Below, piece by piece: positions 6,101 to 45,752 of a stretch of DNA of 64,000 nucleotides. The position numbers and the translations under genes are program-made. The number at the start of each line of letters is the position of its first letter. The first letter of the stretch is position 1. The notes under the pieces are model-generated. The model ran no database searches. It worked only from the letters and a program-made list of their open reading frames with translations, and was not told where the DNA came from. Source of the stretch: a bacterium (GTDB lineage Bacteria > Patescibacteriota > Minisyncoccia > UBA6257 > Colwellbacteraceae); the NCBI GenBank assembly GCA_021787205.1, contig JAJYME010000006.1, forward strand, positions 15,644 through 79,643, given 5' to 3'.

Positions 6101-6102
6101 GT

Positions 6103-8564: not shown

Positions 8565-9641
8565 TTAGAATTTATTAAGCAAAGTTTTCTTATAAACATC
8601 CAAATGATTCAAGATCATGCTCGAACCCTTGGCGACGCACATTATCGCTTCCGGAGCGGTATACGCTTCCACTCCCAGGATGCGCTTCAGGAAATCAGCG
8701 ATGTTTCTGAGGTTGGCTCCTCCGCCGGAAACTATCACTCCTTTTTCCATTACGTCCGCCACTAACTCTGGCGGTGTCTGGTTGAAGACTCCTTGGATGC
8801 TCGAAGCGATTTCCAAAAGCAGTGGATTCAAAGCTTCGGCGATCTCGTTCGAATTGATGGTGATGTCTTTTGGAAGACCCGTCGTCAGGTCTCTTCCGCG
8901 AATTTCGAATTCGATCTTATTCTTCATCGGAATTGCCGAACCGGCGTTTATCTTCGCCAACTCCGCGGTCTGCTCTCCAATGGATAGGGAATACTTCTTC
9001 TTGATGTATTCTATGATCGCATTGTCGAACTTGTTTCCGGCAACTCTAAGAGAAGACCAGCAAACGACGGAACCTAGGGCGATTACAGCCACCTCAGAAG
9101 TTCCTCCGCCGATGTTAACAATCATATTTCCAGAAGACGAGTTGATCGGGATTCCAGCGCCTAAGGCAGCCATTAATGGTTCCTTGACGATATAGGCGGT
9201 CTTAGCTCCTGCTTCTTCCGCCGCTTGGACGATAGCGCGTCTTTCGGTTGCCGTAATTCCAGCCGGACCGGAGACAACCACATCAGGACGCCAGATATTA
9301 AATGTGCCAATAGCCTTTCTGATAAAATAGGTCAGCATTGCTCGAGTGATATAATAGTCGGCAATGACGCCATCCTTAAGCGGACGGTAAGCGGCGATGT
9401 CTCCGGGCGTGCGACCAACCATTTCTTTCGCCTCCCTTCCGACAGCCAAAACTTTGTTAGTTGATAAATCAAGCGCAACGATTGTTGGTTCATTGATTAT
9501 GAAACCCTTGTCCGGAGTGTAGACCACGGTATTTGTCGTTCCCAAATCAATCCCTATCTGACGCGTAAACATAATTAATATATTAACATAAAATACCCCA
9601 AAGTCTAACCCGCTTTGATTGACAAAACGCCCTAAATTCAT
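8565..9641 (-). CDS. Second MreB/Mbl-family actin-like protein
   Basis: Has [12 protein letters not shown] and GGGTSEVAV motifs. 358 aa. A paralogue of the 3865-4908 gene. Confidence 0.8.
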   Translation of the reverse strand: MNLGRFVNQSGLDFGVFYVNILIMFTRQIGIDLGTTNTVVYTPDKGFIINEPTIVALDLSTNKVLAVGREAKEMVGRTPGDIAAYRPLKDGVIADYYITRAMLTYFIRKAIGTFNIWRPDVVVSGPAGITATERRAIVQAAEEAGAKTAYIVKEPLMAALGAGIPINSSSGNMIVNIGGGTSEVAVIALGSVVCWSSLRVAGNKFDNAIIEYIKKKYSLSIGEQTAELAKINAGSAIPMKNKIEFEIRGRDLTTGLPKDITINSNEIAEALNPLLLEIASSIQGVFNQTPPELVADVMEKGVIVSGGGANLRNIADFLKRILGVEAYTAPEAIMCVAKGSSMILNHLDVYKKTLLNKF

Positions 9642-11596: not shown

Positions 11597-12757
11597 TTAT
11601 TTGACATACCAGCGCATCACGAATTGTCCGGCGTCGCTGCTCGAACAAGAAGTGTTGTAATAGAGCGCCCCGTTGTACCCAGTCCACTTAAAAACCCAAT
11701 CTAGCTTGAGTCCGGTCATATCGGTGGCGCTGCAGCAAGGATTTGCCCAAACGCCATCAGCCCAGTTACACATTCCAAAACTGGTATAAGAACCGCCGTA
11801 TGGAGGATTGTAGTAGCCCGTCGAACCGCCGCCGATGCTGGAACACTGGAGAATGCTCGTCGTCCTGTGCAACAAGGTGGTCACATTATTATAGGGTATC
11901 TTTACCGAAGTGATATCATATTGTTTCACGTTGACGCTGCAGCTTGTTCCGTAACCGGTTCCGACAACATCCGATCCGTTCCAGGCAGCCGTCCCTTTAT
12001 TAACGACAATGCTTGCCAGATTGGCATTAAGCGCCGTCCAACCGCCACCATCCGAAACCATATCGCAATCGACGGCAATGATCGGTTCTATGCCGGTTCC
12101 GTCAACGTCTATCCAATATTGGCCGCTCGCCGCCTGGGAGTATTTCGTCTTGATATCGAGACAACTTGTCCCTTTAGCTACATTGGGGGCGACTGTCAGT
12201 GAGTTCCCCATCTCAAAGACGGCTCCATTATCTCCCCCGTCCTTAGCTGCCGAATCAAAGAATTTCGCCGATTCCACCGCCGCGTCAATCTCAAAGCCTC
12301 CGGCGGCCGCCGCATAAACATAATAGGATCCGGTCGAACCATCGTTCTTAGGATCGATTGGTAAGACCGAAACCGGCGATCCTCCTTTTATATTTCTGAA
12401 ATCTGTCGGCATCCAGCCCGTACCGTCAATCTTGCGGAGATTTGCGGTTGTCACGCATCTGTAAGTCCATCCTGAAGGCAGGGCCGGCAGGCCGGTTATG
12501 TTGGCGCAGGTCGCGGATGTATCCGGGATGGAGATATAGGCGACATTGGCCGCCCCAAGGGAGGTGGCGGGACTGTCGGCGATCAAAAGCATTGTCGCAT
12601 CATCGATTGATTTGATGTCTGTCTTCCTGCTTGAATCCCTTGATTGGGCTAAAAGTTCCGTCGGATTGAGGACTAAGACCGTTGCCGACCCCAAAACGGC
12701 GACGATCGCAATCACTATAAGAAGTTCTATTAAAGTGAAAGCCCGAATACGAGACAT
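11597..12757 (-). CDS. Type IV pilin/pseudopilin-like protein with a large Cys/Gly/Thr-rich C-terminal domain
   Basis: N-terminus RAFTLIELLIVIAIVAVLG is a class III prepilin signal carrying the conserved Glu5. 386 aa. Its own terminators sit on both sides. Confidence 0.6.
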   Translation of the reverse strand: MSRIRAFTLIELLIVIAIVAVLGSATVLVLNPTELLAQSRDSSRKTDIKSIDDATMLLIADSPATSLGAANVAYISIPDTSATCANITGLPALPSGWTYRCVTTANLRKIDGTGWMPTDFRNIKGGSPVSVLPIDPKNDGSTGSYYVYAAAAGGFEIDAAVESAKFFDSAAKDGGDNGAVFEMGNSLTVAPNVAKGTSCLDIKTKYSQAASGQYWIDVDGTGIEPIIAVDCDMVSDGGGWTALNANLASIVVNKGTAAWNGSDVVGTGYGTSCSVNVKQYDITSVKIPYNNVTTLLHRTTSILQCSSIGGGSTGYYNPPYGGSYTSFGMCNWADGVWANPCCSATDMTGLKLDWVFKWTGYNGALYYNTSCSSSDAGQFVMRWYVK

Positions 12758-12856: not shown

Positions 12857-14137
12857 CTAAGCTGATTCGTATTCGCTGACTTTAAGCTGTGATTCGATTT
12901 GTTGCATTGAATCCAAGGCAACGGAAACGACAATTAAAAGCGTCGTTCCTCCGAAGGTGAAATTCTGCTTGGTTATCACCTGGGTGACAATCGGCAGGAT
13001 TGCCAATACCGCCAGGAATAAGGCGCCGAAGAAAGTTGTCTTTCCGGTGATGTTCCCGAGATAGTTGGCGGTCGGATCTCCAGGACGGATTCCGGGGACG
13101 AATCCACCGGAGTGTTGGAGATTTTTCGAAATTTCATTCGAATCGAAAACAACGGCTGTATAGAAGTAAGTAAAGGCAAAGACAAGGACGAAATAAATGG
13201 CGCCGTAAATGAGCTGATTGCTCATAAATGTCTTGACGGCCCCGTTTATCGCTTGGATGCCCGGAATCGAAGTCAGGGAGAGGAACGCCAGAACCATTTG
13301 CGGCAGCGACAAAAGCGCAATCGCAAAGATTATCGGAATGACTCCCGCCTGAGTTACCTTGATAGGCAAATAACTGTCGACTCCCGCCATTACTCTTCCG
13401 CCCCTTATCCTTTTCGGATAAGTGACAGGAATCCTCCTTTCGCCGGAGCTGATGAATACCACTCCGCCGACGATCAGGACGATCAAAACGGCGAAGACGG
13501 CAAAGACATCAATGCCTAAGGCCCCATCTGAAAGCTTTGAAAAAGCACTCATGATCTGGTTAGGCAATCCGGCGACGATACCGGCGAAGATGACGAGAGA
13601 AACACCGTTTCCGATCTTTTTCTCGTCAATCAATTCGCCGACCCACAAAAGGATCATTGTTCCGGCTGTGGCAACTGCAATGTTGATCCACAAATCCGGA
13701 GACAAGAGACCCATTTTAGGAATAACTTGTTGGGCAGCGAGGAGTTTTATGTAACTGAACGTCTGGATTACAGCCAAAGGAATAGTGATCAATCGGCTGA
13801 TCCTGTTGAATTTGGCGCGTCCAGCCGAACCGTCTTCATAATACATTTCCTTGAGTGATGGGAAAATCATAGTCAAGAGCTGCATTATGATGGTTGCGGT
13901 GATATAAGGGCCTACGCCCAACATCGCCACGGAAATTTTATCCAAACTTCCGCCGGAAAAAACGCTCCAGAAACCCAACATTTGGTTGTTGGCATAAAAC
14001 GCCTTCAAAGCTTCGACGTTTACGTTAGGCAGGACGACTGCCGCAAGCAAACGGAAGAATACGAGAAGGCCCAAGACCACTAGGATCTTGTTCCTTAACT
14101 CTGTCGAACGAAATATTCTCAAAAAGCGTTTAAGCAT
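12857..14137 (-). CDS. secY: Preprotein translocase subunit SecY
   Basis: 426 aa with 10 TM segments and the canonical SecY N-terminus. Confidence 0.95.
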   Translation of the reverse strand: MLKRFLRIFRSTELRNKILVVLGLLVFFRLLAAVVLPNVNVEALKAFYANNQMLGFWSVFSGGSLDKISVAMLGVGPYITATIIMQLLTMIFPSLKEMYYEDGSAGRAKFNRISRLITIPLAVIQTFSYIKLLAAQQVIPKMGLLSPDLWINIAVATAGTMILLWVGELIDEKKIGNGVSLVIFAGIVAGLPNQIMSAFSKLSDGALGIDVFAVFAVLIVLIVGGVVFISSGERRIPVTYPKRIRGGRVMAGVDSYLPIKVTQAGVIPIIFAIALLSLPQMVLAFLSLTSIPGIQAINGAVKTFMSNQLIYGAIYFVLVFAFTYFYTAVVFDSNEISKNLQHSGGFVPGIRPGDPTANYLGNITGKTTFFGALFLAVLAILPIVTQVITKQNFTFGGTTLLIVVSVALDSMQQIESQLKVSEYESA

Positions 14138-15514: not shown

Positions 15515-16069
15515 TTATTTTCCAGCGACCTTCTTACCGGCCTTTCTTCTGATTACCTCGTCAGAGTAAGCAATACCGGATCCCTTATAAGGTTCAGGTT
15601 TGCGAACGGCGCGGATGGTAGCAGCGAAAGCTCCGACTTGTTCTTTGTTCATTCCAGAAACTTTGACGACGTTCTTATCAACCGCAACTTTCAATCCCTC
15701 AGGGATTTCAAGATTGACAGGATGAGAATATCCGACAGTCAAGGTTAAAGTGTTTCCAGAAACGGCAGCGCGATAACCGACTCCTTGGATCGTGAGATCC
15801 CTTGAGAAATCAGTTTCGACTCCCGATACGGCGTTCTGAGTCAAAGCTCTCATAGTTCCCCAATTGGCGCGAGTCTGTCTCTCTTCGTTTAAAGCGACGA
15901 AAGAAAGCTCATTTCCTTCCATTTTGGGGGAAATACCCTTCAAAACGGGAACTTGGATAGTTCCATTTTTTCCGGTGACGGAAACAGTCTTGTCTGAGAT
16001 TTCAACTTTGACTGAGGCCGGGACGATTATTATTTTCTTACCTACCTTAGACATATTACCAAATTTCAA
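15515..16069 (-). CDS. rplF: Ribosomal protein L6
   Basis: 184 aa with two L6 repeats. Confidence 0.9.
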   Translation of the reverse strand: MKFGNMSKVGKKIIIVPASVKVEISDKTVSVTGKNGTIQVPVLKGISPKMEGNELSFVALNEERQTRANWGTMRALTQNAVSGVETDFSRDLTIQGVGYRAAVSGNTLTLTVGYSHPVNLEIPEGLKVAVDKNVVKVSGMNKEQVGAFAATIRAVRKPEPYKGSGIAYSDEVIRRKAGKKVAGK

Positions 16070-31232: not shown

Positions 31233-32072
31233 CTATTTCTCTAACTGGATATCCCCCTCATAATCCGTCCTTCTGATCTTGGCTCCGGCAAGAATCAATC
31301 TCTGCAGCGTCTCTTTTGCCGGATGTCCGTAGAAATTCTTTCCGACAGAGATTATCGCGAGCTCCGGCCGCACGTATTTGAGTAACCTGTCCCCAGTTGA
31401 GGACTTTGCTCCATGATGGGCCACCTTCAAAATATCAGCTCTCAAAAGCTTTCCGTATTTTCGCATCAGCTTCTCTTCTGCCTTTTGGCTTATATCCGCC
31501 GCAAACAATATCCTCTTGGGCTTGGCAATCGCGAAAATCACGATGGAATTGTCATTATCACCCTTAAGCTTCATCCTGATGTCCGGAGATAGGATTTCCA
31601 ACTGCTCTTCACCAAAATCGATCTTTGTTCCGGAGGTGACCGCCGTTACCCTTGTCCCTCTAGCCCTCGCGATATTCATTGCCTCGAATAATTCATAAGG
31701 CATTGAAGTCGTATCGGGGTAAGTTTTTCCATCAGCAGAAGGAAAGACTAAGGCGCCTATTTCATATCTCTTGGCAATTTCCAAAGCTCCGCCGGAGTGG
31801 TCTTTGTCATAATGGCTTATAAAGACGACATCGAGATATTTCCTTCTGCCCAAATACTCTCCGATCTTCCTGACAATTCCTCCTTCCGGCCCGGTATCAA
31901 CGAGATAAATATGACTCCCCGATTGGGATAGCGCCGCATCTCCTTGCCCGACATCCATAAAGACATATCTCTTGGGAGTTGGGGCAATCATAAGAGCTGA
32001 TACCGCATTAAAGAATATCAGCAAAATAAGCAATGGTTTTGATTTCATAATGTAAAAGGATATTTGCGACAA
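31233..32072 (-). CDS. comEC: ComEC/Rec2 C-terminal metallo-beta-lactamase domain protein (separate ORF)
   Basis: DVGQGDAALS and ISHYDKDHSGG (HxHxDH-type MBL) motifs. An N-terminal hydrophobic segment is present. Overlaps the upstream ORF by 65 nt in a different frame. Confidence 0.7.
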   Translation of the reverse strand: MSQISFYIMKSKPLLILLIFFNAVSALMIAPTPKRYVFMDVGQGDAALSQSGSHIYLVDTGPEGGIVRKIGEYLGRRKYLDVVFISHYDKDHSGGALEIAKRYEIGALVFPSADGKTYPDTTSMPYELFEAMNIARARGTRVTAVTSGTKIDFGEEQLEILSPDIRMKLKGDNDNSIVIFAIAKPKRILFAADISQKAEEKLMRKYGKLLRADILKVAHHGAKSSTGDRLLKYVRPELAIISVGKNFYGHPAKETLQRLILAGAKIRRTDYEGDIQLEK

Positions 32073-33342
32073 AAGAGACGAACCAAGAAACGATTCCCAA
32101 CTTATCTCCGATAAGCGAGGTCAGAAAAACGAATAAGTAAGTGATGGGGATAAGGGAGATTATTGCCAGATTGGCGATGAGCCCGATCGGGGCCACGGTT
32201 ATGCCGTTCCAGAGGATCACCGGTGTGACCGCCAGTTGGGCGGAGACGGTTTCTGAAAAGCCCATTTTGTTGATTATTTTTCCGACGGAAATCTTGTCGA
32301 CTGCTTTTGAAATTCCCCCAGAAAAGGTCGCAAGGCCTAGGATTGCCGCAAAGGAGAGTTGGAAACCCAGATCGCCGGAAACCCCCGGGTCAAAAAGGCT
32401 CATTGTGAAAGCGGAGAAGGCAAGCGCGTTTCTAAGCGAATACTTCTTTCCAAAGAACGCGGCTAAAATAAAAACCGATCCCATTATCACCGACCGCAAA
32501 AGAGAGGCGGAATATCCGGCCAATAACCAAAGTATCAAAATCAATATGATTGAGAAAAACAAGGCTGAACGCCGCTTTAAGAATATCCCCAGTATTGAGA
32601 TCGAGACCGTCATTAAAATCATCACGTTCCAACCGGAGAGAGCGACGATATGGCTTGTCCCCGTCTTTCTTAAATCATCCTTGAATTCCTTGGAAAATCC
32701 GGAAGTGTCACCCAGAAGCAAACCGTTGGCCAGTGCCGCCTCAGACGCCGGCAGCGACCTCCCTATGTTTTCAAAGAGCCAATCTCGGACAGTCTCAACT
32801 AGCAATCCCGTTTTGTTTTTTGAGTGCTCGACTAATGTGATCTTTTGCTTGTTAAGATACGCCCCGGCGCTCCTAATCTGGTAAACAACTCCCTCGATTC
32901 TGACCCTATCACCGATATGAAAATCCCCTCCATCAGTCAAGATATTAAAGTCACCCTTATCTGTCCTGACCTTAACCAGGATATAAGACGGAGAATTATG
33001 AATAAAATCCTTGATTGTACCGATTGCCTTTATTTTCTCCCCGACTAAAAAAACCGCCCGGTAATTGGCTTGATGGATCCAGGCATAGCCGGAAAAGACC
33101 GCCAAAGAAATGAAAATGATGCCAATGACTTCCCTGAAGACCTTTTCTTGGAAAATAAGAAATGACCCGATCATAATTGCCGCCAAAGAAAAAGCCGCCC
33201 AATGCAAATTGAAGTTAACCAGGCTCATCCCTATAAAACCAAAGAGGAAGAACACAAAGACGGCATCATATGCCACCAACTTTCCCCGCTTCAAAGACGG
33301 CAATATTTTTGAAAAATCAAAAAGACGCATCGTGTTTATCAA
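32008..33342 (-). CDS. comEC: ComEC/Rec2 N-terminal part (DUF4131-like OB region and polytopic competence membrane domain)
   Basis: 444 aa with VKVRTDKGDFNILTDGG…RVRIEGVVYQ, then more than 8 TM segments typical of the ComEC competence domain. Confidence 0.7.
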   Translation of the reverse strand: MINTMRLFDFSKILPSLKRGKLVAYDAVFVFFLFGFIGMSLVNFNLHWAAFSLAAIMIGSFLIFQEKVFREVIGIIFISLAVFSGYAWIHQANYRAVFLVGEKIKAIGTIKDFIHNSPSYILVKVRTDKGDFNILTDGGDFHIGDRVRIEGVVYQIRSAGAYLNKQKITLVEHSKNKTGLLVETVRDWLFENIGRSLPASEAALANGLLLGDTSGFSKEFKDDLRKTGTSHIVALSGWNVMILMTVSISILGIFLKRRSALFFSIILILILWLLAGYSASLLRSVIMGSVFILAAFFGKKYSLRNALAFSAFTMSLFDPGVSGDLGFQLSFAAILGLATFSGGISKAVDKISVGKIINKMGFSETVSAQLAVTPVILWNGITVAPIGLIANLAIISLIPITYLFVFLTSLIGDKLGIVSWFVSFVANILLHYEIKTIAYFADIL

Positions 33343-34453: not shown

Positions 34454-34499
34454 TTTATAAGCAAAAGGGCCCGCGATTGCGAGCCCGCATTGATGCCAA

Positions 34500-34802
34500 T
34501 TATTCTTCGGCTTTGGGTAAGATGATAATCATCCGTTCGCCAGCAACTTTCGGGTTATTCACTTCCCTGCGCTCCTCGCCCTTGGCTTCCATGTCCAGGA
34601 CAATCTTAAGCCAGGGGTTCGCTTCGGTAATCTCAAGAGTCTGGATCCGGTCGGCCGGGTCAGGCTCCTCGGGGCAGTAAAAGGTTACCGTCCGAACAGC
34701 CACGCACTTCTGGCCGATCTCGATGGCAATCCTCATTACCTCCTGCTCATGGATGCTCAGAGTCATCTCCAAGATTTTTTCATTCGTCCCTTCGCTACTC
34801 AT
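34500..34802 (-). CDS. Hypothetical protein (100 aa)
   Basis: Clean ORF in an operonic position between efp and mnmA. No recognisable motif. Confidence 0.3.
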   Translation of the reverse strand: MSSEGTNEKILEMTLSIHEQEVMRIAIEIGQKCVAVRTVTFYCPEEPDPADRIQTLEITEANPWLKIVLDMEAKGEERREVNNPKVAGERMIIILPKAEE

Positions 34803-34941: not shown

Positions 34942-35520
34942 TTAGATATTCTTTGAGGTGGAAATACGCTCAACATAAGTATTGGTTTCCGTATTTACCT
35001 TGATGACATCCCCTTCGTTAATGAACAAAGGCACGGTCACTTTGGCTCCACCCTCGACGGTGACAAGCTTGTCTCCGCCCTGGGCAGTATTGCCCTTTAA
35101 GGCTGGGGGCGCTTCCGTCACCATCAAATCCATCTTGACCGGAAGAGTAATCTTAATCGGTTCGTCGGATATGGTGAGGATATTGACCGGGGTATTAGCT
35201 TTAAGATATTTTCCGGCATCTCCGATCAGCGTTTCGCTCAAAGAAAAGCGAGTCTTCGGATTTCCCGGTTCTTGGAACCAATATTCCCCACGGTTTGCGT
35301 AAAGGAAAGTGAATTCCTTTCTGGAATACTCCGCTTCCTCGATGTGGTCGGATGCCTGCCAGGTTCGGTCGACAACCTTTCCGGTTTTGAGTTGCTTCAT
35401 CCTGGTCGTCACCGTCGCCTTTCTCTGTTGCATTCTCATGAATTCAACGTCAACGATTTCGTACGGTTCATTGTTCCAGATGATGATCATCCCTTTTTTA
35501 AGTTCGGTATATGAAATCAT
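34942..35520 (-). CDS. efp: Elongation factor P
   Basis: 192 aa, with KPGKG replaced by KTGKV in loop I, and three OB/KOW-like domains. Confidence 0.85.
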   Translation of the reverse strand: MISYTELKKGMIIIWNNEPYEIVDVEFMRMQQRKATVTTRMKQLKTGKVVDRTWQASDHIEEAEYSRKEFTFLYANRGEYWFQEPGNPKTRFSLSETLIGDAGKYLKANTPVNILTISDEPIKITLPVKMDLMVTEAPPALKGNTAQGGDKLVTVEGGAKVTVPLFINEGDVIKVNTETNTYVERISTSKNI

Positions 35521-35522
35521 AG

Positions 35523-37013
35523 TTATTTTTCAGTTTGTTCTTCTTCGGTTATCGGACTGCCCGTGTGATTGATCGAATCCACTTTTTTGGATTCGGCGGA
35601 CTCCTCTTTCGATTTTAAGAGATCCGATAGGGCGTCTCTTAAATCATGAAGTTCTTCTTCGGTCTTTTCCTTTTTAACCGGTTTCAAAATGTCCTTGGGA
35701 GAAACCTCGTTTCTTCTTACTGCCCGGGACTCAACCGATTCTTTGGTTTCCCACTTCTCGGCGACTTGTTTCTCAACAGTCGCTCTGGGCAAAGTGTAAT
35801 TTCTCCTTGAGTTCTCGATTATGAGATCAGTAAAGGTCTCCTCGGGAGCTCTTAAGAAGGGCATATTTTGGGCTGAAAACGGACGCGAAGCGACACCGTC
35901 TATCATCAACTTGAGATAAACGTTGTGCTTGGCCGTATTTACCAGGTCTTCAGCGGTGATTTCCGGAGAGAATTCTTTCTCCAAGCTCTCCGCGTCCTCC
36001 GCTCCGACCCTGAAAGCGACAATCGTTCCTACGTTACCGAAGACGGCGCCGCGGACAGAGTCGCTTAATTGTTCGATATATTGGTGGGCCAAGATCAGTG
36101 ACAGATGGTATTTTCTGGCTTCTGACAAAATGACCGCGAAAGAATCGGTTGAGAAGTTTTGGAACTCGTCGATATACAAGAAGAAGTCCTTGCGGTCTTT
36201 CTCCTGGATATCGATTCTGGACATCGCCGCTTGTTGCAACGTCGTGATAAGCATTGCTCCCAACAAGGCGGAATTGTCCTCTCCGACCCTTCCGTGCGAA
36301 AGGTTGGCAATAAAGATCTTCTCAGAGTCCATGATCTCCCTCATGTTGATGGAAGATTTGGGTTGCCCGATTATATTCCTGATCAAAGGGTTGGCAATGA
36401 ATTGCCCGACTTTGTTCTGGATGGCCGCCACCGCTTCTGCGGCGTAGCGGTCAGAGTATTTTCCAAATTCGTTTACCCAGAAGTTCTTGACCATCGGGTC
36501 TTCGATCCGGCTGACGATGTCATTTCTGAATTTCTCGTCAGAGAAAAGTTTCATGACATCGAGCAAGGTCGTTCCCGGAAATTCGATCAAGGCCAAAAGG
36601 GCGTTGTTCAAGATATATTCCATTCTGGCCGACCAGGCGTCAACCCAGATTTTCTTGAAGACTCCCATGATCCCGGAAGCCACCAAGTGGCTCCTGGATT
36701 TGTCGGTGACCTCAAGAGGATTGAATCCTATCGGGTAATCGATATCGGACGGATTGAAGTAGACTACGTCTTGGATTCTTTCCGCCGGGACGAAATCAAG
36801 CATCTTTTCGGCAAATTGCCCGTGAGGGTCAATAAGTCCCACTCCTCGGCCGGAACGGATATCGTCTACTATCATGTTCTCCATCATAGTAGTCTTTCCC
36901 GTACCAGTCTTACCGATCAAATACATATGGCGCCTACGGTCGTCGGTCTTGATTCCGAAGGTGGTAAGCTTGTTTCTGAAAGTTGTTTGTCCAAAAAAAT
37001 TGATATCGCTCAT
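35523..37013 (-). CDS. Soluble TraG/TraD/VirD4-like (FtsK-HerA superfamily) P-loop ATPase with an acidic C-terminal tail
   Basis: Walker A LIGKTGTGKTT, Walker B FFLYIDEFQNF, then ILAHQYIEQLS (the TraG-D_C-like DEF…Q..QL pattern). The last 60 aa are Glu/Ser/Lys-rich. No TM segment. Confidence 0.6.
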   Translation of the reverse strand: MSDINFFGQTTFRNKLTTFGIKTDDRRRHMYLIGKTGTGKTTMMENMIVDDIRSGRGVGLIDPHGQFAEKMLDFVPAERIQDVVYFNPSDIDYPIGFNPLEVTDKSRSHLVASGIMGVFKKIWVDAWSARMEYILNNALLALIEFPGTTLLDVMKLFSDEKFRNDIVSRIEDPMVKNFWVNEFGKYSDRYAAEAVAAIQNKVGQFIANPLIRNIIGQPKSSINMREIMDSEKIFIANLSHGRVGEDNSALLGAMLITTLQQAAMSRIDIQEKDRKDFFLYIDEFQNFSTDSFAVILSEARKYHLSLILAHQYIEQLSDSVRGAVFGNVGTIVAFRVGAEDAESLEKEFSPEITAEDLVNTAKHNVYLKLMIDGVASRPFSAQNMPFLRAPEETFTDLIIENSRRNYTLPRATVEKQVAEKWETKESVESRAVRRNEVSPKDILKPVKKEKTEEELHDLRDALSDLLKSKEESAESKKVDSINHTGSPITEEEQTEK

Positions 37014-37021
37014 ATGTTATT

Positions 37022-38449
37022 TTATTCGATTGGCAGGTTGACTGGAGGAGGCGTCTTCTTGGTCTCAACGGGAGCCAAGCCAGAGGCCTGTGATTTGCGA
37101 TTGACTGGAGGATGGAAAAGGGTCGCTAGCTCCTCCGCGTTCAAGATGAACGGTTCCGGAAGGTTCTTTTTATATTTTATTTCCAGGAACTCGATCTTGA
37201 AAAGATTCATGAAAGATACTCTCAGATTGTCGAACATATCCTCGACATTGCTGTAAGGATAGATCGTCCTCGCCTTGTAGTATCTGTACATCGTGTGTTT
37301 CCTCTGATCCAAGATCTCCTTTTTTCTGAAGAAGCGGCTCGGCTTGGTAAAGGTCGGGCCAGGTCTCAGGAAGTTAAGATGTTGGGTGTTAAATTGCTGG
37401 AAAGAAGACATCATTGCCGGGAAGTTAGTCTTGTCAAAAGACGCTTTCTTGTCGATGTAAATCATCCTGATGGATGTCTTGAAGGCTGATTTGCTCGCTT
37501 TCCTGTCGATGTTCCTTAAAACTTCGATATCAACCGGACTCAACTGTTCGTCTTTCTTGGCTTCTGGCTTTGCAGGCGCTTCCCATTCGGGGTGCGTTAT
37601 TGCCGCCATCATCAAATTCTTCCCGAATTCGGCTGAAGTTCCGGCGATACTCTCAAGAGCTCCTTTCTTCGCCTCAGCTTCCTTCTTATCCTTGAGGATT
37701 TTCTTAGTTATCTTCTTGACCGCATCCTTCAAATCTCCGGCTGAAGGAGAGATGACAATTTGGATGCACATCCTCTCCTCGCTGGACTTAAGTCCGGACA
37801 TGACTTCCGAAAGATGGGAAATCGGGTCTATTTCGTACTCCTCGAATTTTCTTTCTCCAAAGAAGTATGAATATGTTTTCAGCGGATAGGCGCTATCCTT
37901 TCCCAAAATCAAGTCGGTTCCTAAGATATCGTATTCGGAGTCAGGAAGGTCAGCCGGAAAATCACTGAGATAATCATTGGCTTCGACTATTTCCGTTTCC
38001 GGATATTGGGAGAATATCGCTTTTTCGAAAAGGGTTCTGTATTTCTTATTGACGCGGATGAAGAAGCGGATTCCCTCTTTCGAGGAAACCATCTCCAGCG
38101 CGGCTGATTCTTCGAACTGACCGGCAAGATACTTCTTCTCGGGCATGATTCCGAAGCTGTAAATCTGATAAAAGGCGGAAAAGACGTTTTCCATCGCCTT
38201 AGGAAACACTTCGTTGTTTCTCGGAAACTTCAATTCCAAGAAAATCCAGTTGAATTCTTTGTCATAGAACCTTTCCTGAGCTTCATCTAACCACCAATTA
38301 TGAAGGAAGGAGAACAAAAATTTTGCCAGGATGAAGGCTAGGACAAACCAGATAACAATGGAAAAAATCGGCTTTATGACACCGATTGTTTCCTTAACTA
38401 TATTCCAAAAATTGACGGTAAATAAATCAAAAATATCAAAGGCAGACAT
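37022..38449 (-). CDS. Single-pass membrane protein of unknown function (475 aa), partner of the ATPase
   Basis: N-terminal TM IFSIVIWFVLAFILAKFLFSF, then a large soluble domain with a Lys/Glu-rich central linker. Start and stop lie within 15 nt of the flanking genes. Confidence 0.5.
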   Translation of the reverse strand: MSAFDIFDLFTVNFWNIVKETIGVIKPIFSIVIWFVLAFILAKFLFSFLHNWWLDEAQERFYDKEFNWIFLELKFPRNNEVFPKAMENVFSAFYQIYSFGIMPEKKYLAGQFEESAALEMVSSKEGIRFFIRVNKKYRTLFEKAIFSQYPETEIVEANDYLSDFPADLPDSEYDILGTDLILGKDSAYPLKTYSYFFGERKFEEYEIDPISHLSEVMSGLKSSEERMCIQIVISPSAGDLKDAVKKITKKILKDKKEAEAKKGALESIAGTSAEFGKNLMMAAITHPEWEAPAKPEAKKDEQLSPVDIEVLRNIDRKASKSAFKTSIRMIYIDKKASFDKTNFPAMMSSFQQFNTQHLNFLRPGPTFTKPSRFFRKKEILDQRKHTMYRYYKARTIYPYSNVEDMFDNLRVSFMNLFKIEFLEIKYKKNLPEPFILNAEELATLFHPPVNRKSQASGLAPVETKKTPPPVNLPIE

Positions 38450-38464
38450 TAGGATAGGTAGTTG

Positions 38465-39289
38465 TTATTTTCTTAACGAGTAGGTTCCGCGACCGGTCAG
38501 AACGAAGCGATCATCTTTGATGAGTTCGTTGTGGACGGTGGGAGCATGCGATCCGATCGCTTTTGCGATGTCGGAGAAATGCATGGGGACGCCGACTTTT
38601 TTAAGCAGAAGATAAGCCTTGGCGCGAACGGTTTTGGGATTGATCTCTTCCCATTCCGTAAGGCCGATATCGCCATAAGGTCCGACTCCGATCTTTTTGG
38701 AGACGGAAAGGTATGAAACGGCGACGTGCTCGTTGATCGAATGCTTCTTGATGATTTCCTTTAAGATTTCATTAAACTCCTCAGAATTCGTGATTCTGGA
38801 AATTATGTCATCGTGGAGCCTGCCCATTTTTTCTTTCGCCTCGTCAGAGTCATACCAGAAGTTGTGGTAGATCTCGTTGTTTTCCGAAAGAATCGGATAT
38901 TTGATGAGTTTTAAGACAAAATGGATGCGGTTTCCGAAAGTTGAAAGATTATCTTCCGATTTCATTAAGTTATAAAAATCGGAAATAAGATAGTTATCAA
39001 GCCTTACTCCACCGACATTTTCGATGTATCTCTTGAGAAATTCGTGAATTACATTGATTTCTTCGATTGAAAAGATGTCATCCCTAATCTCAGTCATTGC
39101 CTGACTTTCAATTTGACGGACGCGCTCTCTCGTTATTTTAAAACGATTGCCAAGTTCCTGAAGAGTGGTCTGCCTGAATGAATCAACCCCGAAACGGCCT
39201 CTGATGATAGCCTGGGTGCGTTCATCCAAATTAGACCTCTCAATGAGATGATCAATGGTTTTGTTAATTTTTATCTGATCAAGGGTCAT
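38465..39289 (-). CDS. Protein with an N-terminal sigma-70 region-4-like HTH and an uncharacterised C-terminal domain
   Basis: AIIRGRFGVDSFRQTTLQELGNRFKITRERVRQIESQAMTEIR matches the sigma70 r4.2 consensus. A second HTH-like segment occurs near the C-terminus. 274 aa. Confidence 0.5.
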   Translation of the reverse strand: MTLDQIKINKTIDHLIERSNLDERTQAIIRGRFGVDSFRQTTLQELGNRFKITRERVRQIESQAMTEIRDDIFSIEEINVIHEFLKRYIENVGGVRLDNYLISDFYNLMKSEDNLSTFGNRIHFVLKLIKYPILSENNEIYHNFWYDSDEAKEKMGRLHDDIISRITNSEEFNEILKEIIKKHSINEHVAVSYLSVSKKIGVGPYGDIGLTEWEEINPKTVRAKAYLLLKKVGVPMHFSDIAKAIGSHAPTVHNELIKDDRFVLTGRGTYSLRK

Positions 39290-39301
39290 TTTTGAGGTAG
39301 T

Positions 39302-40210
39302 TTACAATTTTTTTCTTTTTATGTCAAGCTGGTAGGCTGCGACAAGGAGCGGGCTTGCCAGGAAGATCGAGGAATAAGTCCCGAAAAACATCCCTACAAG
39401 CATCACTATAGCGAAATAATGGACTGAAATCGGCCCAAAAACGGCTATTGCCAAGAGCGCTAACATAATTGAAAGACTGGTATTCAAGGAACGCATCACG
39501 ACCTCATTAAGGCTTCTATTGACGATTCCAGGCATATCTACCCCCTTTTCCCTATGACCGGCAAGGTTCTCCCTGATCCTGTCGAAGACAACGATCGTGT
39601 CTTGAGCTGAGAATCCGGCGATGGTCAGCAAGGCGACGATGAAATTGGTATCTATTGTCATTCCGCTGAAACGGCCAAGGACGGCGGCGGCGCCGGCAGC
39701 AATGACGACATCATGCGCCAAGGCCACAATAGTGATTATTCCGTATTTCCAGGATGGAACCGGGTAAGAGACTGCTTTGAAAGTAATGGTGATATAAATC
39801 GCCATGACTGCGAGGACAGCCACTATCAACATCATCGACTTGTTTTTGAGCTCATTCGAAATGGAGGGAGTGGTAAGCCCGAAGTCGAGCTCTTTGAAAT
39901 TGCCAAACTTTGCTTTCAAAGAATCGGCGTATTGAGCTTTTTGCTCATCGGTCATCATCGGCATCACGATAGAATAAGAGTTGCTGGCAGAATCATAAGA
40001 GACAATCGGATCTTCGATTTTCAAGTCGTTCTTCAGATAAGCGCTAAGATCCCTTTCCGAAGCCGGAACTTCGATCTGCCATGATGAACCGCTCTTAAAA
40101 TCGATTCCGGGCTTAAGGCCGAAGATGGCGAGGGCGGCGATAGAGACGCTTACAAAGATAACGGATAAAAGGATAAATATGGTTTTATGTTTGATAAACT
40201 GAAATTTCAT
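39302..40210 (-). CDS. secF: Protein-export membrane protein SecF
   Basis: 302 aa with 6 TM segments and the SecF topology. Adjacent to secD. Confidence 0.85.
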   Translation of the reverse strand: MKFQFIKHKTIFILLSVIFVSVSIAALAIFGLKPGIDFKSGSSWQIEVPASERDLSAYLKNDLKIEDPIVSYDSASNSYSIVMPMMTDEQKAQYADSLKAKFGNFKELDFGLTTPSISNELKNKSMMLIVAVLAVMAIYITITFKAVSYPVPSWKYGIITIVALAHDVVIAAGAAAVLGRFSGMTIDTNFIVALLTIAGFSAQDTIVVFDRIRENLAGHREKGVDMPGIVNRSLNEVVMRSLNTSLSIMLALLAIAVFGPISVHYFAIVMLVGMFFGTYSSIFLASPLLVAAYQLDIKRKKL

Positions 40211-40221
40211 GGTTTTTATTC

Positions 40222-41526
40222 TTATTTTGAAGCGACTCTTGTTTTCCTTCTATAAATCGTTCGCAGAATATTCCTGGTGACGGTATAGGTCAGGATTAAG
40301 TTGATGGCCATGCCGACGAGCAAGGTGAGGGCAAATCCCTTCACGAAGCTTGAGGAGAAGAAATAAAGCATCAAGGCGATAATCATCGTGCTGACGTTTG
40401 AATCTCTTATCGAAACCCAAGCGTGTCTGAAGCCGTTCTCGATGGCGGCATATCTTGAGGCCCCTTTCTTTTCTTCTTCCTTAGCTCTTTCAAAAATCAG
40501 GATGCTAGCATCAACCGCCGAGCCGATAGAAAGGATGAATCCGGTGATTCCGGCCAATGACATGGTGAATCCCGGTGTGATCTTGAATATGGCAAGGGTG
40601 GTTATTATGTAAAATATCAAGGCTAAAGCGGAAGCGATTCCTGAGACGCCGTACATGATGACCATGAAGACGATGATAAGAATCGTGCCGACGCATCCAG
40701 CGATCATTATTTTAAGCAAAGAATCGGACGCTGCTGTGGCATTGACGGTTCTGCGGGATTCGAGTGAAATCGGGGCGCCAAGGGCTCCGGCGTTGAATCT
40801 CTCCGCCAGCTGTTTGGCTGACTCGATCGTTATTCCCTGTCCCGAGATTTGGGCTTTTCCGCCAGCAATTTTCTCATTGACGATGGGAGCGCTGATTATA
40901 TTGTCATCCAAAAAGATCGCCAGCGGCTTTCCGACATTTCTTTCGGTAAGCTTTTCAAAAATCTTTGCCCCCTCTTCATTGAACTCGATATTGACTTGAG
41001 GTGATGAGAATCCTTGGTTGGCATAACCCCAGGTGGCTGATTTTACATATCTTCCGGTGAGCTCGGTCGGAGCGCAAGCCAGGAGATCTCCCTGATTAGT
41101 CTTTAATGTCTGACAGTTTTCACGGAACTCAAGCGTGGGCGTGTCTCCGATTTCTTTTACTGCTTTCTCGACATCTTTGATTCCGGCCAACTCAACCAGG
41201 ATCTGTCTTTGGTTTCCCTTCTCAATTATGCGGACTCTCGGTTCGGAAACTCCGTAAAGATTAACACGTTTTTCAATGACATCTTTCAAACCGTTAGTCA
41301 CCGCTGCATAATCCTGCGGCTTTACGTTTGAGAGATCGACGTTATAAACCAGTGACGATCCTCCGACTAGATCCAAACCAAGTTTCCAATTGGAATACCG
41401 GTTGAAAAATAAATCTGGAGACTTTTGATTGCCGTAAAGGATTTCTCCCGGTTTTGGCAAAACGAACGTCGCGCCTAAAAGGAATACTAGCAAGGCGGTG
41501 ATTAGAAATAACGCTTTGTGTTTCAT
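40222..41526 (-). CDS. secD: Protein-export membrane protein SecD
   Basis: 434 aa with a periplasmic domain followed by a C-terminal 6-TM bundle. Confidence 0.85.
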   Translation of the reverse strand: MKHKALFLITALLVFLLGATFVLPKPGEILYGNQKSPDLFFNRYSNWKLGLDLVGGSSLVYNVDLSNVKPQDYAAVTNGLKDVIEKRVNLYGVSEPRVRIIEKGNQRQILVELAGIKDVEKAVKEIGDTPTLEFRENCQTLKTNQGDLLACAPTELTGRYVKSATWGYANQGFSSPQVNIEFNEEGAKIFEKLTERNVGKPLAIFLDDNIISAPIVNEKIAGGKAQISGQGITIESAKQLAERFNAGALGAPISLESRRTVNATAASDSLLKIMIAGCVGTILIIVFMVIMYGVSGIASALALIFYIITTLAIFKITPGFTMSLAGITGFILSIGSAVDASILIFERAKEEEKKGASRYAAIENGFRHAWVSIRDSNVSTMIIALMLYFFSSSFVKGFALTLLVGMAINLILTYTVTRNILRTIYRRKTRVASK

Positions 41527-42943: not shown

Positions 42944-43831
42944 TTAAAGATTAATCACCTCCTTATCTCTGGGCTCATAAGTCCTTTTGACAAACTTGGA
43001 TATGACAAGCAATTCGAAAATAGCCGTACCCAGCACCGTTACCGCAAAAGCGATCAAGGGACTGATGGTTGAGATGGTTAAGAATACCAGGACCGCCAAG
43101 CCGATTGAAATATAAGTAGGATCGATCTGCTTCAAAAATTCGGAGATCTTAGTCTTAGTCACATCTTCAATTTCAGAAACCACCGTCTTATCTCCCTCGA
43201 TCTTGACTCCATAACTCTCCTCGACTTGTTTGATTGACTTCATCACCGCTTTTTCCAAAGTGTCGTTCTTGATCTTTTCGGAAAGATTGTCGAATCCGGT
43301 TATCGTCTTTCTCGCTGTCTCCAAGGCGGCATTCTCAAAAAAATCCCCAACCTTCGTTTGGGCGGTAAAAGACGGATAGTAAAACCTAAGCACGCTAACG
43401 GATGTCTTGCCGGCCGTCTGGGACAGATAGTCGGCAATCCTCCCCGCTGGATTTGATCCAAACCCGTAAAACAAGGCTAAGAAAAGGGCCAAGCCGGTCA
43501 CTGATTTTCCAACTACCGACTTTGCCACATCGTTAAAGTTTATCTTGATCGTATTCTCAGCTGAGTTGTTTCCCGCCATCTGGCCAAGAAAAAAGAAAAT
43601 TGAGGAAACGATAAAAGTTCCGAACATGACGGAATACCCAAGGCCCTGGTCAACATAATAGGCCACCCCGCAAAGCGTTATCGAATACGCTACTGAAACC
43701 AGGAGCATCCTCGTCCATCCGAGGTCAAACATTGATTGGATGACAAGAAGCACCAAAAAGATCATCGAACCGATCAATGTCTGGAGATAATTCCCGCTGA
43801 CAAAAGAAAAAGCCGCAAAGCCCGCCATAAT
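42944..43831 (-). CDS. Polytopic membrane protein of unknown function located between dnaK and dnaJ
   Basis: At least 6 hydrophobic helices. Start placed at an internal Met to avoid a 110-nt overlap with dnaK. The ORF track extends it to 43969. Confidence 0.45.
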   Translation of the reverse strand: MMAGFAAFSFVSGNYLQTLIGSMIFLVLLVIQSMFDLGWTRMLLVSVAYSITLCGVAYYVDQGLGYSVMFGTFIVSSIFFFLGQMAGNNSAENTIKINFNDVAKSVVGKSVTGLALFLALFYGFGSNPAGRIADYLSQTAGKTSVSVLRFYYPSFTAQTKVGDFFENAALETARKTITGFDNLSEKIKNDTLEKAVMKSIKQVEESYGVKIEGDKTVVSEIEDVTKTKISEFLKQIDPTYISIGLAVLVFLTISTISPLIAFAVTVLGTAIFELLVISKFVKRTYEPRDKEVINL

Positions 43832-43859
43832 GGCGGTTGCGGCTATGAAAAACAGGCTC

Positions 43860-45752
43860 TTAATTAGAATTCGTAGATTCTGAACCACTATCCTCTCGGG
43901 TTTGTTCTCCTCTACCGGGCTCATTTGTATTTGCATTGGCGTTGTCTTTATTGTACATAATTTCGCCAATCTTTTGAAGCTCGGTCGACAATGCTTCGAA
44001 TTTCGATTCTATGTTTTTTTCGTCATCGCCCTTCAAGGCGTCACGAAGATCGGTAATCTTGTTTTCGATGGAAACCCTAAGCTCAGAAGACACTTTTTCT
44101 CCGGCGTCCTTAAGGGACTTCTCGGCGGTATAGATCAGGTTTTCTGCCATATTTCTCTTTTCTGCCAGATCTCTGATCTTCTTGTCGGCTTCGGCCGCTT
44201 CGGCCGCCTCCTTCTTCAAGCGCTCGATTTCATCCTTGGACAATGAGGTTTTGGCCTCGATCCTGACTGATTGTGACTTTCCGGTCGCCTTATCGGCGGC
44301 TTTGACGTTCAAAATTCCGTTGGCGTCAATGTCAAAAGTGACTTCGACTTGCGGGACTCCTCTCGGTGATGGCGGGATTCCCTCTAGGACGAACTTGGCC
44401 AAGGTTTTGTTATCGGCAGCTCTCGCTCTCTCTCCCTGGGTAATATGGATTTCAACTGACGTCTGGTTGTCCGAGGCGGTGGAGAATATTTGCGACTTCG
44501 CAAAAGGAATGGTCGTATTCTTCTCAATCATCGGAGTGGCGATCCCACCCATTGTTTCAATCGAAAGGGTCAAAGGAGTGACATCGAGCAACAAGACGTC
44601 TTTGACATCTCCTTGGAAGATTCCTCCCTGGACAGCTGCTCCTAAAGCGACAACTTCGTCAGGATTGATTCCCCTGTGGGGATCCTTTCCAAAAATGCTT
44701 TTGACGGATTCCTGGATGGCTGGCATCCTGGTCTGTCCTCCGACCAAAATGACTTCGTCGATATCCGAGATCTGAAGCCCGGCTTCCTTGACGGTCGCCT
44801 TAGTCAGCTCTCCGGCTCTTCCGATCAGATCCGCAACAAGCTCCTCGAGCTTGGAACGGGTAATTTTCATCTCCAAGTGTTTCGGACCTTCAGCGATATA
44901 AGGAAGATTGACGGTGGTCTCGACAGCGGACGAAAGTTCATGCTTGGCGCGCTCGACCGCTTCCTTCAAACGTTGTAAAGCGAGTGAATCCTTGGAAAGG
45001 TCGACTCCTTCGGTCCTTTTATATTCGGCAATGACGTATTCCTGGAGTTTTGTATCCAAGTCGTCTCCACCCAAATGGGTGTCGCCTCCGGTTGAAAGGA
45101 CTTTGACATCTCCTCCCAATGAATCGAAATCGACTTCCAAGACGGAAACGTCAAAAGTTCCTCCTCCAAAATCATAAACGACGATTTGTTCGTTCTTTTG
45201 CTTGTTCAATCCGTAAGCTAAAGCGGCAGCCGTCGGTTCGTTGATGATTCTTTTGACGGTCAATCCGGCGATTTCTCCGGCGTTCTTAGTCGCTTGTCTT
45301 TGGGCATCGTCAAAGTAGGCCGGGACGGTAATGACCGCTTCGGTGACTTTCTCGCCCAAGCGCATCTCGGCATCCGCCTTAAGCTTGGCCAAGACCATGG
45401 CGGAAATTTCTTCCGGAGCATGCCATTTGTCTCCTAACTTTATCTCGACACCGCCGTTTGCCGACTCTCTGATGTCATATGGCAACAAGGCTTTGTCCTT
45501 CTGGACTTCCGCGTCGGTCCATTTGCGTCCGATAAGACGCTTGACCGAAAACAGAGTATCCTTCGGGTTGGTGACCGCTTGGCGTTTAGCCAAAAGGCCG
45601 ACCAGTCTCTCATTTGTTTTTGAAAGCGCGACGATGGAAGGAGTTGTTCTCGCTCCCTCGGCGTTTTCAATAATAGCTGGTGATCCATCGGATCCGACAA
45701 CCGCCACGGCGGAATTAGTCGTTCCAAGATCGATTCCTATTACTTTTCCCAT
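43860..45752 (-). CDS. dnaK: Chaperone DnaK (Hsp70)
   Basis: [17 protein letters not shown] and [11 protein letters not shown] motifs. 630 aa. Confidence 0.97.

Follow-up and report, generated by a model that had tools for sequence, protein, structure and literature searches.

The locus

Three genes lie packed between secF and efp, all on the minus strand, in a 64-kb stretch of Colwellbacteraceae contig JAJYME010000006.1 (hereafter the window; all coordinates are window positions). In the order in which they are read, they encode a protein with a helix-turn-helix (HTH) of the type found in sigma factors, a membrane protein of the family DUF8128, and a soluble P-loop ATPase that resembles type IV coupling proteins (T4CPs). 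The open reading frames (ORFs) are exactly those of a preliminary description of the locus, and they are as tightly spaced as it said, with gaps of 2-15 nt: 12 nt between secF and the HTH gene, 15 nt between the HTH and DUF8128 genes, 8 nt between the DUF8128 and ATPase genes, and 2 nt between the ATPase stop codon and efp (Table 1). The evidence presented below suggests that the DUF8128 protein and the ATPase may together constitute a coupling protein, split into two polypeptides and fixed in the chromosome. No other gene of a type IV secretion system (T4SS) and no relaxase, integrase or transposase is found in the 64 kb, nor are there repeats nearby; the absence of neighbouring T4SS genes had been noted in the preliminary description as well.

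Table 1. Coordinates of the cassette, its parts, its neighbours, and other features of the window
Feature	Position	Strand	Remarks
HTH protein	38465-39289	-	274 aa; sigma-70 region 4, then three winged-helix-like units, the last of HARE-HTH type
Sigma region 4	39083-39232	-	aa 20-69; holds recognition helix T53-R-E-R-V-R-Q-I-E61
C-terminal HARE-HTH-type winged helix	38471-38632	-	aa 220-273; weak Pfam/TIGR matches, orthologue annotation
DUF8128 (PF26449) membrane protein	37022-38449	-	475 aa; short outside N-terminus, one transmembrane helix, large alpha/beta domain predicted to be cytoplasmic
Single transmembrane helix	38297-38392	-	~aa 20-51; Kyte-Doolittle 19-residue window peak 2.62
C-terminal motif and tail	37025-37138	-	aa 438-475, EELATLFHPP...PPVNLPIE; candidate docking/linker peptide to ATPase
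T4CP-type P-loop ATPase	35523-37013	-	496 aa; core aa 1-420, variable tail aa 421-496
Walker A	36891-36914	-	G34-K-T-G-T-G-K-T41; read from sequence
Walker B	36153-36173	-	I281-D-E-F-Q-N-F287 (D282-E283, in YIDEFQNF); read from sequence
secD	40222-41526	-	upstream neighbour
secF	39302-40210	-	upstream neighbour
efp	34942-35520	-	downstream neighbour, 2 nt past ATPase stop codon
Intrinsic-terminator-like hairpin and T-run	34467-34486	-	8 pairs, 7 of them G-C; first strong one past the gene string
Promoter-like site	39299-39327	-	TTGACA, 17-nt spacer, TAAACT
Acidic ORF	34500-34802	-	100 aa; no family
comEC, first ORF	32008-33342	-	444 aa; membrane/competence part
comEC, second ORF	31233-32072	-	279 aa; apparently metallo-beta-lactamase part
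ORF between dnaK and dnaJ	42944-43969	-	341 aa; listed TTG start overlaps dnaK end
Protein with type IV pilin motif	11597-12757	-	386 aa; motif at residues 1-25
secY	12857-14137		adjoins the preceding
MreB/Mbl paralogues	3865-4908, 8565-9641	-	both full-length

The ATPase resembles coupling proteins

The preliminary description placed the ATPase in the T4CP branch of the FtsK-HerA superfamily, and profile searches bear this out. The best Pfam match is to TrwB_AAD_bind (PF10412; 46.6 bits, cut-off 20.5), and those to TraG-D_C (PF12696; 22.1 bits, cut-off 22) and DUF87 (23.8 bits, cut-off 23.2) just reach their thresholds. Most orthologues carry precomputed PF02534 and PF12696 tags. Matches to NCBIfam models of T4CPs and of VirB4 are all sub-threshold; TIGR00929 scores 22.5 bits, with a cut-off of 643. 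Among proteins of solved structure, the best relative by sequence is TrwB, which BLASTP aligns with aa 24-318 (E 5e-7); the alignment runs across the region of the all-alpha domain (query 78-250, TrwB 180-326) at about 20% identity. TrsK, the T4CP of pGO1, aligns with aa 28-348 (E 0.004). The VirB4 proteins TrwK and TrsE, in contrast, align at the P-loop only. Long alignments with the two T4CPs and such short ones with the two VirB4 proteins argue that the ATPase is of the coupling-protein type rather than of the VirB4 type.

Like other T4CPs, the members of the family conserve the Walker motifs and boxes downstream of them: GKTGxGK, DPHG, DEFQNF, LSEARKY, and FGNxGT are each at least 90% conserved among 71 sequences. 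Unlike them, the protein has no N-terminal transmembrane (TM) domain. The lack of TM segments had been remarked upon earlier, and a hydropathy scan that shows two such segments in TrwB shows none here. The tail beyond residue 420 is not conserved (column conservation 0.26, versus 0.73 in the core). It had been likened to the acidic tail of TraD, and in the window ATPase it is indeed acidic, with a net charge of -4, but the resemblance does not extend to the orthologues, in which the median charge over the last 60 aa is +3. In some divergent ATPases of Patescibacteria (at 5084-6787 of locus L084 and in the record P0110), an additional C-terminal zinc finger, PF23477 (zf_Tbcl_2), replaces the variable tail.

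The DUF8128 protein as a putative membrane anchor

The preliminary description gave the middle gene one N-terminal TM helix and a large domain of unknown fold. The first part stands: no hydrophobic segment besides the one at the N-terminus is found. On average, 0.43 lysines and arginines flank the helix on its N-terminal side and 2.64 on its C-terminal side (72 orthologues, p 2.5e-12), from which a cytoplasmic location of the large domain follows by the positive-inside rule. The second part does not stand, in that the protein carries the precomputed tag PF26449 (DUF8128) and a fold can be proposed for it. The local copy of Pfam used for hmmscan does not include PF26449, and the protein had no match in it at E<=1, the families of the VirB4 N-terminal domain (CagE_TrbE_VirB and TraC_F_IV) included. 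A model by AlphaFold2 (AF2) from 103 sequences (pLDDT 89.8, pTM 0.83) finds its only strong structural neighbour in TrwK, 13 chains of which head the Foldseek list with probabilities of 0.92-0.99. TrwK is a VirB4 protein and thus an ATPase, but DUF8128 has no P-loop and there is no other RecA/ASCE ATPase among the Foldseek matches, so the region matched is presumably the N-terminal domain of VirB4. If the model is right, then, the cytoplasmic domain of DUF8128 would have a fold like that domain.

The C-terminus of the protein is also of interest. The motif EELAT..H.P and, at the extreme end, P..LP are at least 90% conserved in the family, while the tail is modelled with low confidence (pLDDT 57-62), and the motif is duplicated in some members longer than the typical ~430-475 aa. 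Such behaviour of EELATxxHxP...PPxNLP is typical of a docking peptide. A literature search found no paper that mentions DUF8128, in keeping with the earlier judgement that the combination of genes is unstudied.

Relatives on conjugative elements

Outside the Candidate Phyla Radiation (CPR), a hidden Markov model (HMM) of DUF8128 matches only proteins adjoining, or fused to, this type of T4CP. An 883-aa protein of a Shouchella clausii plasmid is a fusion, with DUF8128 on residues 61-320 and the ATPase from about 325 (E 4e-17). A Priestia megaterium plasmid carries a similar fusion in a disrupted gene (E 3e-21). In an 812-aa T4CP of Embleya, DUF8128 occupies residues 94-401 and the T4CP domain begins at 415 (hhalign E 2.4e-4 over 287 columns). 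On a plasmid of the haloarchaeon Natrinema, a separate 395-aa DUF8128 gene overlaps the start of a T4CP-like gene (E 1e-10). The motif (E/D)ELAxxxH(L/I)P stands at the DUF8128/T4CP junction in all four cases, and it directly precedes the ATPase domain in the fused proteins of Embleya, Shouchella, and Streptomyces. R388 and pGO1 are negative. The N-terminal half of an orphan T4CP of Bradyrhizobium was considered and proved not to be DUF8128.

These relatives have the same two modules as the CPR pair, in the same order, split in Natrinema as they are here, and those of Embleya and Priestia likewise begin with a single TM helix. They differ in their surroundings. The genes of Shouchella and Embleya share their conjugative clusters with VirB4-type ATPases, a PrgI/VirB3-like gene, and Replic_Relax (relaxase-like) genes, whereas nothing of the sort is near the CPR copy, which has gained instead an HTH neighbour (sigma region 4 plus HARE-HTH) and a place amongst housekeeping genes. 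No neighbour with an HTH of the sigma-region-4 type was found next to the modules outside CPR, and the HTH protein of the window has no similarity to their Replic_Relax partners.

The occurrence of DUF8128 fused to or paired with a T4CP in Bacillota, actinobacteria, and a haloarchaeon indicates that the two make up a single evolutionary module, fused or split, of monoderm and archaeal conjugation systems. The module was seen across four phylum-level groups. This Rosetta-stone pattern is the best evidence available so far that the DUF8128 protein and the ATPase of the window act together.

A search of plasmids with DUF8128 by tblastn gave nothing, but the method has low sensitivity, as the plasmid members found later with the HMM attest. 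A 395-aa orphan ATPase on Sulfitobacter mediterraneus plasmid NZ_CP081110.1 (6983-8170 of locus L085) is 40% identical to the CPR ATPase, far closer than any other plasmid match; with transposases on either side and no DUF8128 to go with it, it may be a fragment that was acquired horizontally.

The HTH protein

The first gene of the cassette encodes what had been described as a sigma-region-4 HTH without other sigma regions, and so it appears. Sigma70_r4 matches with 50.4 bits (aa 20-69), NCBIfam sigma models match aa 7-77 only and far below their cut-offs, and no other sigma region is found in the protein. Unlike sigma factors, it lacks regions 1-3, and since regions 2 and 3 are missing, it is by the look of its sequence not a sigma factor. 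Its N-terminus is 27-40% identical to domain 4 of sigma A/sigma70: aa 20-70 align with residues 550-600 of E. coli sigma70, and TRERVRQIE with residues 583-591. R54, E55, R58, and Q59 thus correspond to R584, E585, R588, and Q589 of sigma70, which we take to be residues that contact the -35 element. All four, and R56 besides, are invariant among 83 homologues. The invariance of residues whose counterparts read the -35 element makes it likely that the protein retains DNA binding of that type. In PADLOC and NCBIfam profile scans, its region 4 also resembles that of MzaA.

The AF2 model of the protein (pLDDT 95) consists of sigma region 4 and three winged-helix-like units. The last of these resembles the winged helix of the delta subunit of RNA polymerase (RNAP), which is of the HARE-HTH type: Pfam HARE-HTH gives a sub-threshold match at aa 220-245 of the window protein (E 0.004), TIGR04567, a model of the N-terminus of delta, gives E 3e-4, and PF05066 (HARE-HTH) is precomputed in many orthologues. 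The protein has no acidic tail, unlike delta.

One of the orthologues bearing PF05066 is SEML1_0294 of S. epibionticum, a protein of 349 aa in which Sigma70_r4 falls on residues 27-72 and HARE-HTH on 225-283, parsed in all as 'tri-helical, winged, winged, winged' (Wang et al. 2023). The architecture is enriched in Patescibacteria. SEML1_0294 lies directly upstream of SEML1_0293, a 921-aa protein with a T4CP domain on residues 361-795 and no domain assigned to the residues before it, and both are flagged as belonging to core, Patescibacteria-enriched families (Wang et al. 2023). Because 921 aa is about the sum of a DUF8128 protein (~430 aa) and an ATPase (~490 aa), SEML1_0293 is presumably a DUF8128-T4CP fusion, with DUF8128 as its first 360 residues. 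Wang et al. 2023 do not take up either protein in their text, but their tables of transposon-insertion sequencing (Tn-seq) are the source of the essentiality data considered below.

Conservation of the cassette

At least 530 species-representative genomes contain DUF8128, essentially all of them metagenome-assembled genomes (MAGs) of Patescibacteria, and a profile search yielded 3,922 DUF8128 cluster representatives at E<=1e-3. Gene order was compared in 80 species-level loci. The preliminary description had staked its account on the three genes occurring together elsewhere, and they do so to a striking degree: the ATPase gene is directly downstream of DUF8128 on the same strand in 77 of the 80 loci and the HTH gene directly upstream in 72. 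Further upstream, secF is found in 54 loci and secD in 51, and nearby are efp in 25 (on either strand), mnmA in 28, and comEC in 14. Exceptions are for the most part due to contig ends, and the order SecD-SecF-HTH-DUF8128-ATPase is retained by the most divergent members of the family. No fusion of DUF8128 with either the ATPase or the HTH protein was seen among the 80 CPR loci or the top 150 family representatives. In L064 (5368-6914) and L074 (6307-7902), DUF8128 is followed by what appear from their sequences to be an MltG/YceG-like gene and then a gene for a DnaQ-like exonuclease, so that the ATPase gene must be elsewhere or lost.

Such co-occurrence excludes a strain-specific island. The module is vertically inherited, near-core in Patescibacteria, and embedded in housekeeping synteny, so it is not the stand-alone oddity of one locus that it first seemed to be (and its DUF8128 and T4CP parts occur on conjugative plasmids as well). 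Median identity to the window protein is highest for the ATPase, at 58.9%, followed by MnmA (51.6%), EF-P (47.9%), SecD (47.0%), SecF (39.4%), the HTH protein (33.3%), and DUF8128 (31.5%). Since the figure for the ATPase exceeds those for SecD, SecF, and EF-P, the motor is, by this comparison of sequences, under stronger constraint than its housekeeping neighbours.

The same block of genes, typical of Paceibacteria and 30-50% identical, appears in many binchicken TPA (third-party annotation) MAGs labelled uncultured Candidatus Saccharibacteria, Bdellovibrionales, or Gammaproteobacteria. The taxonomic names attached to these records do not look trustworthy.

Transcription and surroundings

A tRNA-Lys and then a hairpin precede secD, and no convincing terminator was found from there to efp. 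The first strong one is the hairpin listed in Table 1, which follows a small ORF located 3' of efp. In the absence of an earlier terminator, it is plausible that secD to efp form one transcription unit that ends at this hairpin, and the three genes probably share a transcript with secDF and efp. A promoter-like site (10 of 12 positions as in the consensus, the sole mark by which it was recognized) is present right where secF ends, about 10 nt ahead of the start codon of the HTH gene; were it genuine, the transcript of the three genes would be nearly leaderless. The small ORF, between efp and mnmA and just before the terminator, has no counterpart by tblastn in any of 80 related loci.

The window shows no break in composition and looks like ordinary core chromosome. 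Its other genes encode penicillin-binding proteins (PBPs), SecY, EF-G, two MreB proteins, aminoacyl-tRNA synthetases, ComEC, MnmA, DnaK/DnaJ, DnaB, a Mur ligase, TGT, and RsmH, and a search with Rfam finds three tRNAs and nothing else. Almost all genes are on the minus strand, and the cumulative GC skew drops nearly monotonically, with a flat part at about 12-26 kb, consistent with a single replichore and strong co-orientation. The two MreB/Mbl paralogues, less than 5 kb apart in this reduced genome, are near genes for a PBP2-like protein and RseP. The comEC gene (31233-33342) is present as two ORFs overlapping by 65 nt; a frameshift or a sequencing error could account for this, or ComEC could be genuinely split. 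The protein encoded beside secY has no Pfam match beyond its prokaryotic N-terminal methylation motif, and so large a size would be unusual in a pilin or pseudopilin. Finally, the ORF between dnaK and dnaJ, without a Pfam match, apparently encodes several hydrophobic segments.

Discussion

We favour the view, with a probability of roughly 55%, that the cassette encodes a membrane-anchored T4CP made of two polypeptides, a split motor of monoderm type fixed in the chromosome, with DNA as our guess for its substrate. The soluble ATPase has the nucleotide-binding core known from TrwB and VirD4, and the DUF8128 protein supplies the single TM helix and a cytoplasmic domain predicted to be like that of the VirB4 N-terminus. 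DUF8128 would hold the ATPase at the membrane, on the cytoplasmic side, and organise its oligomer, presumably a hexamer, and the conserved C-terminal peptide, EELAxxxHxP...PPxNLP, probably docks on the ATPase. By hydrolysing ATP, the motor would then hand a nucleoprotein or protein substrate to a conduit in the membrane, of which the likeliest is the monoderm-type T4SS kept by most Patescibacteria; DNA is the leading candidate for what is handed over. Within Patescibacteria, the unit of DUF8128 and T4CP has left the company of T4SS and relaxase genes and is chromosomal and vertically inherited. The relatives in conjugative systems of Bacillota, actinobacteria, and archaea fit the MPF-FATA ancestry, also monoderm, that a survey published in 2025 ascribes to the T4SS of Patescibacteria.

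Each part of this scheme has some parallel. A coupling protein without TM segments, anchored in trans, has been described in TraJ of pIP501 with TraI (PMC12857230), so that there too a soluble protein is paired with a separately encoded membrane protein as the proposed anchor, although TraI is small, has two TM segments, and lacks the large cytoplasmic domain of DUF8128 (PMC12857230). The N-terminal domain of VirB4 joins one protomer to another, is embedded in the membrane, and makes contact with VirB3 and VirB8 (PMC12857230), mediating membrane attachment and oligomer contacts as proposed here for DUF8128. TrsD of pGO1, a small protein like the VirB4 N-terminus, is encoded directly upstream of an ATPase (trsD-trsE), as DUF8128 is. 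DUF8128 differs from both in having its own TM helix, a partner of the T4CP type, and no sequence similarity to them. The CPR ATPase differs from the familiar T4CPs in turn, having no relaxase or mating-pair-formation (Mpf) genes near it in the window and being chromosomal, vertically inherited, and near-universal in the phylum, with ~59% identity across classes, whereas T4CPs of plasmids are less conserved. The HTH protein may by analogy be an adaptor that binds DNA or RNAP, like TrwA and TraM, which are encoded beside T4CP genes. If so, it would have to hold a second, essential job of its own.

That last provision stems from S. epibionticum, which furnishes the main points against a split T4CP in the service of a T4SS. 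The T4SS and the orthologue of the HTH protein (distinct from RpoD, which is SEML1_0063) are essential in that organism, but SEML1_0293, though its normalised reads fall about 4-fold (5817 to 2940 to 1372), is called non-essential (Wang et al. 2023). The motor would thus not be needed for the essential function of the T4SS, nor could the HTH protein work through the motor only. (There is a second T4CP/FtsK-like ATPase in S. epibionticum, SEML1_0142, of 1019 aa with its P-loop domain from about residue 381 and its N-terminal half likewise unassigned, Patescibacteria-enriched and essential [Wang et al. 2023]; it may be the coupling ATPase of the essential T4SS function.) Other reservations concern the kinship of DUF8128 and VirB4, which rests on a predicted structure: hhalign gives DUF8128 a probability of 0.2% with TrwK and 0.1% with TrsD, a profile search of PDB sequences finds no match, and homology at the level of sequence to VirB4 or TrsD was therefore rejected. 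Nor does gene order bind the parts together as firmly as it might. The ATPase does not adjoin DUF8128 in two lineages (L064 and L074), and adjacency to secDF is kept nearly as well as adjacency to the HTH gene, so that synteny in streamlined genomes is weak proof of coupling. Mirror-tree correlations among the three proteins (partial r 0.37-0.42) reach significance in a Mantel permutation test, but the residual correlation with SecD is just as strong (0.32-0.44), and they are therefore uninformative.

There is also the matter of numbers. VirD4-like T4CPs were found in 2,918 of 3,035 genomes of Patescibacteria (~96%) and VirB4 in 2,417, and just 148 of 5,713 T4CPs are near virB4, according to the 2025 survey, which does no more than note such 'orphan' T4CPs and explicitly leaves their role open. 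The excess of genomes with T4CPs over those with VirB4 argues for some role independent of T4SS. Perhaps, then, the cassette is a housekeeping machine of Patescibacteria in which an essential HTH protein, bound to promoters or RNAP by its sigma region 4 and delta-like domain, is physically coupled to a membrane-anchored translocase of the T4CP type. DNA of the chromosome or of the host, or RNAP-DNA complexes engaged in transcription, could be tethered or moved at the membrane by such a machine. We consider this unlikely but keep it in view, because of that excess, because the ATPase is more conserved than SecD, SecF, and EF-P, and because the adjacency of the HTH protein and the motor outlasts all other neighbours across classes.

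The same adjacency is at issue in the most serious competing account, which we think has a minor though real chance of being correct: that the HTH protein is an independent, essential transcription factor or RNAP-associated protein of Patescibacteria, that DUF8128 and the ATPase are a separate unit, and that their proximity is frozen synteny. The split in essentiality between the HTH orthologue and the ATPase protein in S. epibionticum would then be natural, as would the lack of specific co-evolution by mirror-tree, the absence of such an HTH neighbour from modules outside CPR, and two loci (L040 and L073) that leave no space for the HTH gene between secF and DUF8128. Moreover, secDF keeps its place in 51-54 of 80 loci with no obvious functional link. 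Frozen synteny is harder to reconcile with the persistence of HTH and DUF8128/T4CP side by side from Paceibacteria-like lineages to Saccharimonadia, where all other neighbours differ; the region of SEML1_0292-0298 contains GNAT, a hydrolase, topA, and dprA, with neither secDF nor efp. An adjacency that survives the change of every other neighbour is a classic signature of functional linkage, and DNA-binding accessory genes upstream of a T4CP are the rule in DNA transfer and replication (Dtr) operons. R388, for example, has a gene at 15652-16017, presumably trwA, before trwB, much as the HTH gene precedes the motor genes here.

Four further possibilities are progressively less likely in the order in which they are taken up. 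An anchored ATPase might pull incoming DNA through ComEC during competence and so take the place that the helicase ComFA has in Gram-positive bacteria. The naturally competent S. epibionticum encodes ComEC and DprA but lacks ComFA (both K02240 and the name are absent), its comEC, like SEML1_0293, is dispensable, as a competence function may be (Wang et al. 2023), and dprA is five genes from SEML1_0293. A tie to comEC had been suggested at the outset because of the gene about 2 kb downstream in the window, but this turns out to be loose synteny, with comEC in the flank of 14 of the 80 loci and efp, mnmA, and other genes usually intervening. Considering also that the relatives outside CPR belong to conjugative export clusters with VirB4 and Replic_Relax genes, and that reads of SEML1_0293 drop ~4-fold in outgrowth while those of comEC stay flat, a motor for ComEC seems improbable. 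We know of no T4CP that acts with ComEC. T4CPs can translocate proteins, and the motor might instead drive translocation or extraction of proteins with the Sec machinery, or serve the biogenesis of the envelope or of proteins in some other way that involves SecDF. Probable co-transcription with secD and secF, their presence upstream in some two thirds of the loci (the most divergent ones included), and an ATPase better conserved than either SecD or SecF all suit such a role. It is nonetheless a poor candidate, as the linkage to secDF is absent in Saccharimonadia, no Sec-interacting domain was detected, and the DNA-binding neighbour and conjugative relatives point to nucleic acids as substrates.

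A defence or toxin-export module, as entertained in the preliminary description, or a remnant of a mobile element is highly improbable, and the defence reading was rejected. PADLOC does match the ATPase in part to mad8 (E 6.8e-13), DndH (8e-9), and HerA (9e-7), and sigma region 4 resembles that of MzaA. The matches are limited, however, to generic P-loop and sigma-region-4 parts, and no partner genes of those systems are present. Constant surroundings of housekeeping genes in at least 530 species, purifying selection on the ATPase that exceeds that on housekeeping neighbours, the lack of a compositional anomaly or of integrase, transposase, or repeats nearby, and the absence of DUF8128 matches in phages (by tblastn, the method that missed the plasmid members) all speak against it. 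Equally hard to credit is a translocase of the FtsK/SpoIIIE kind, for chromosome segregation, divided into three. The parallel is attractive in that there would be an anchor, a hexameric motor, and a sequence-reading winged helix in place of the gamma domain, all encoded by core, conserved genes. But FtsK_SpoIIIE (PF01580) matches the ATPase with 13.7 bits, below the cut-off of 24, and S. epibionticum has, besides the dispensable SEML1_0293, an FtsK that is both canonical, with its 4TM, alpha, and gamma domains, and essential (SEML1_0096; Wang et al. 2023); for this reason, the idea that the cassette replaces FtsK was rejected.

Patescibacteria represent a large share of bacterial diversity, and their orphan T4CPs, though known before, now gain an anatomy: a partner or fused domain, DUF8128, a predicted fold for it, a conserved gene order, and relatives on plasmids, all of which are new here. 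The relatives link the orphans to a previously unremarked subclass of T4CPs in conjugative elements of Bacillota, Actinomycetota, and haloarchaea. If the predicted fold is correct, this subclass keeps a two-domain layout like that of VirB4, which bears on how T4CPs and VirB4 diverged. And if the less likely, T4SS-independent role should turn out to be true, a conjugation motor would have been exapted for a core process in ultra-small episymbionts.

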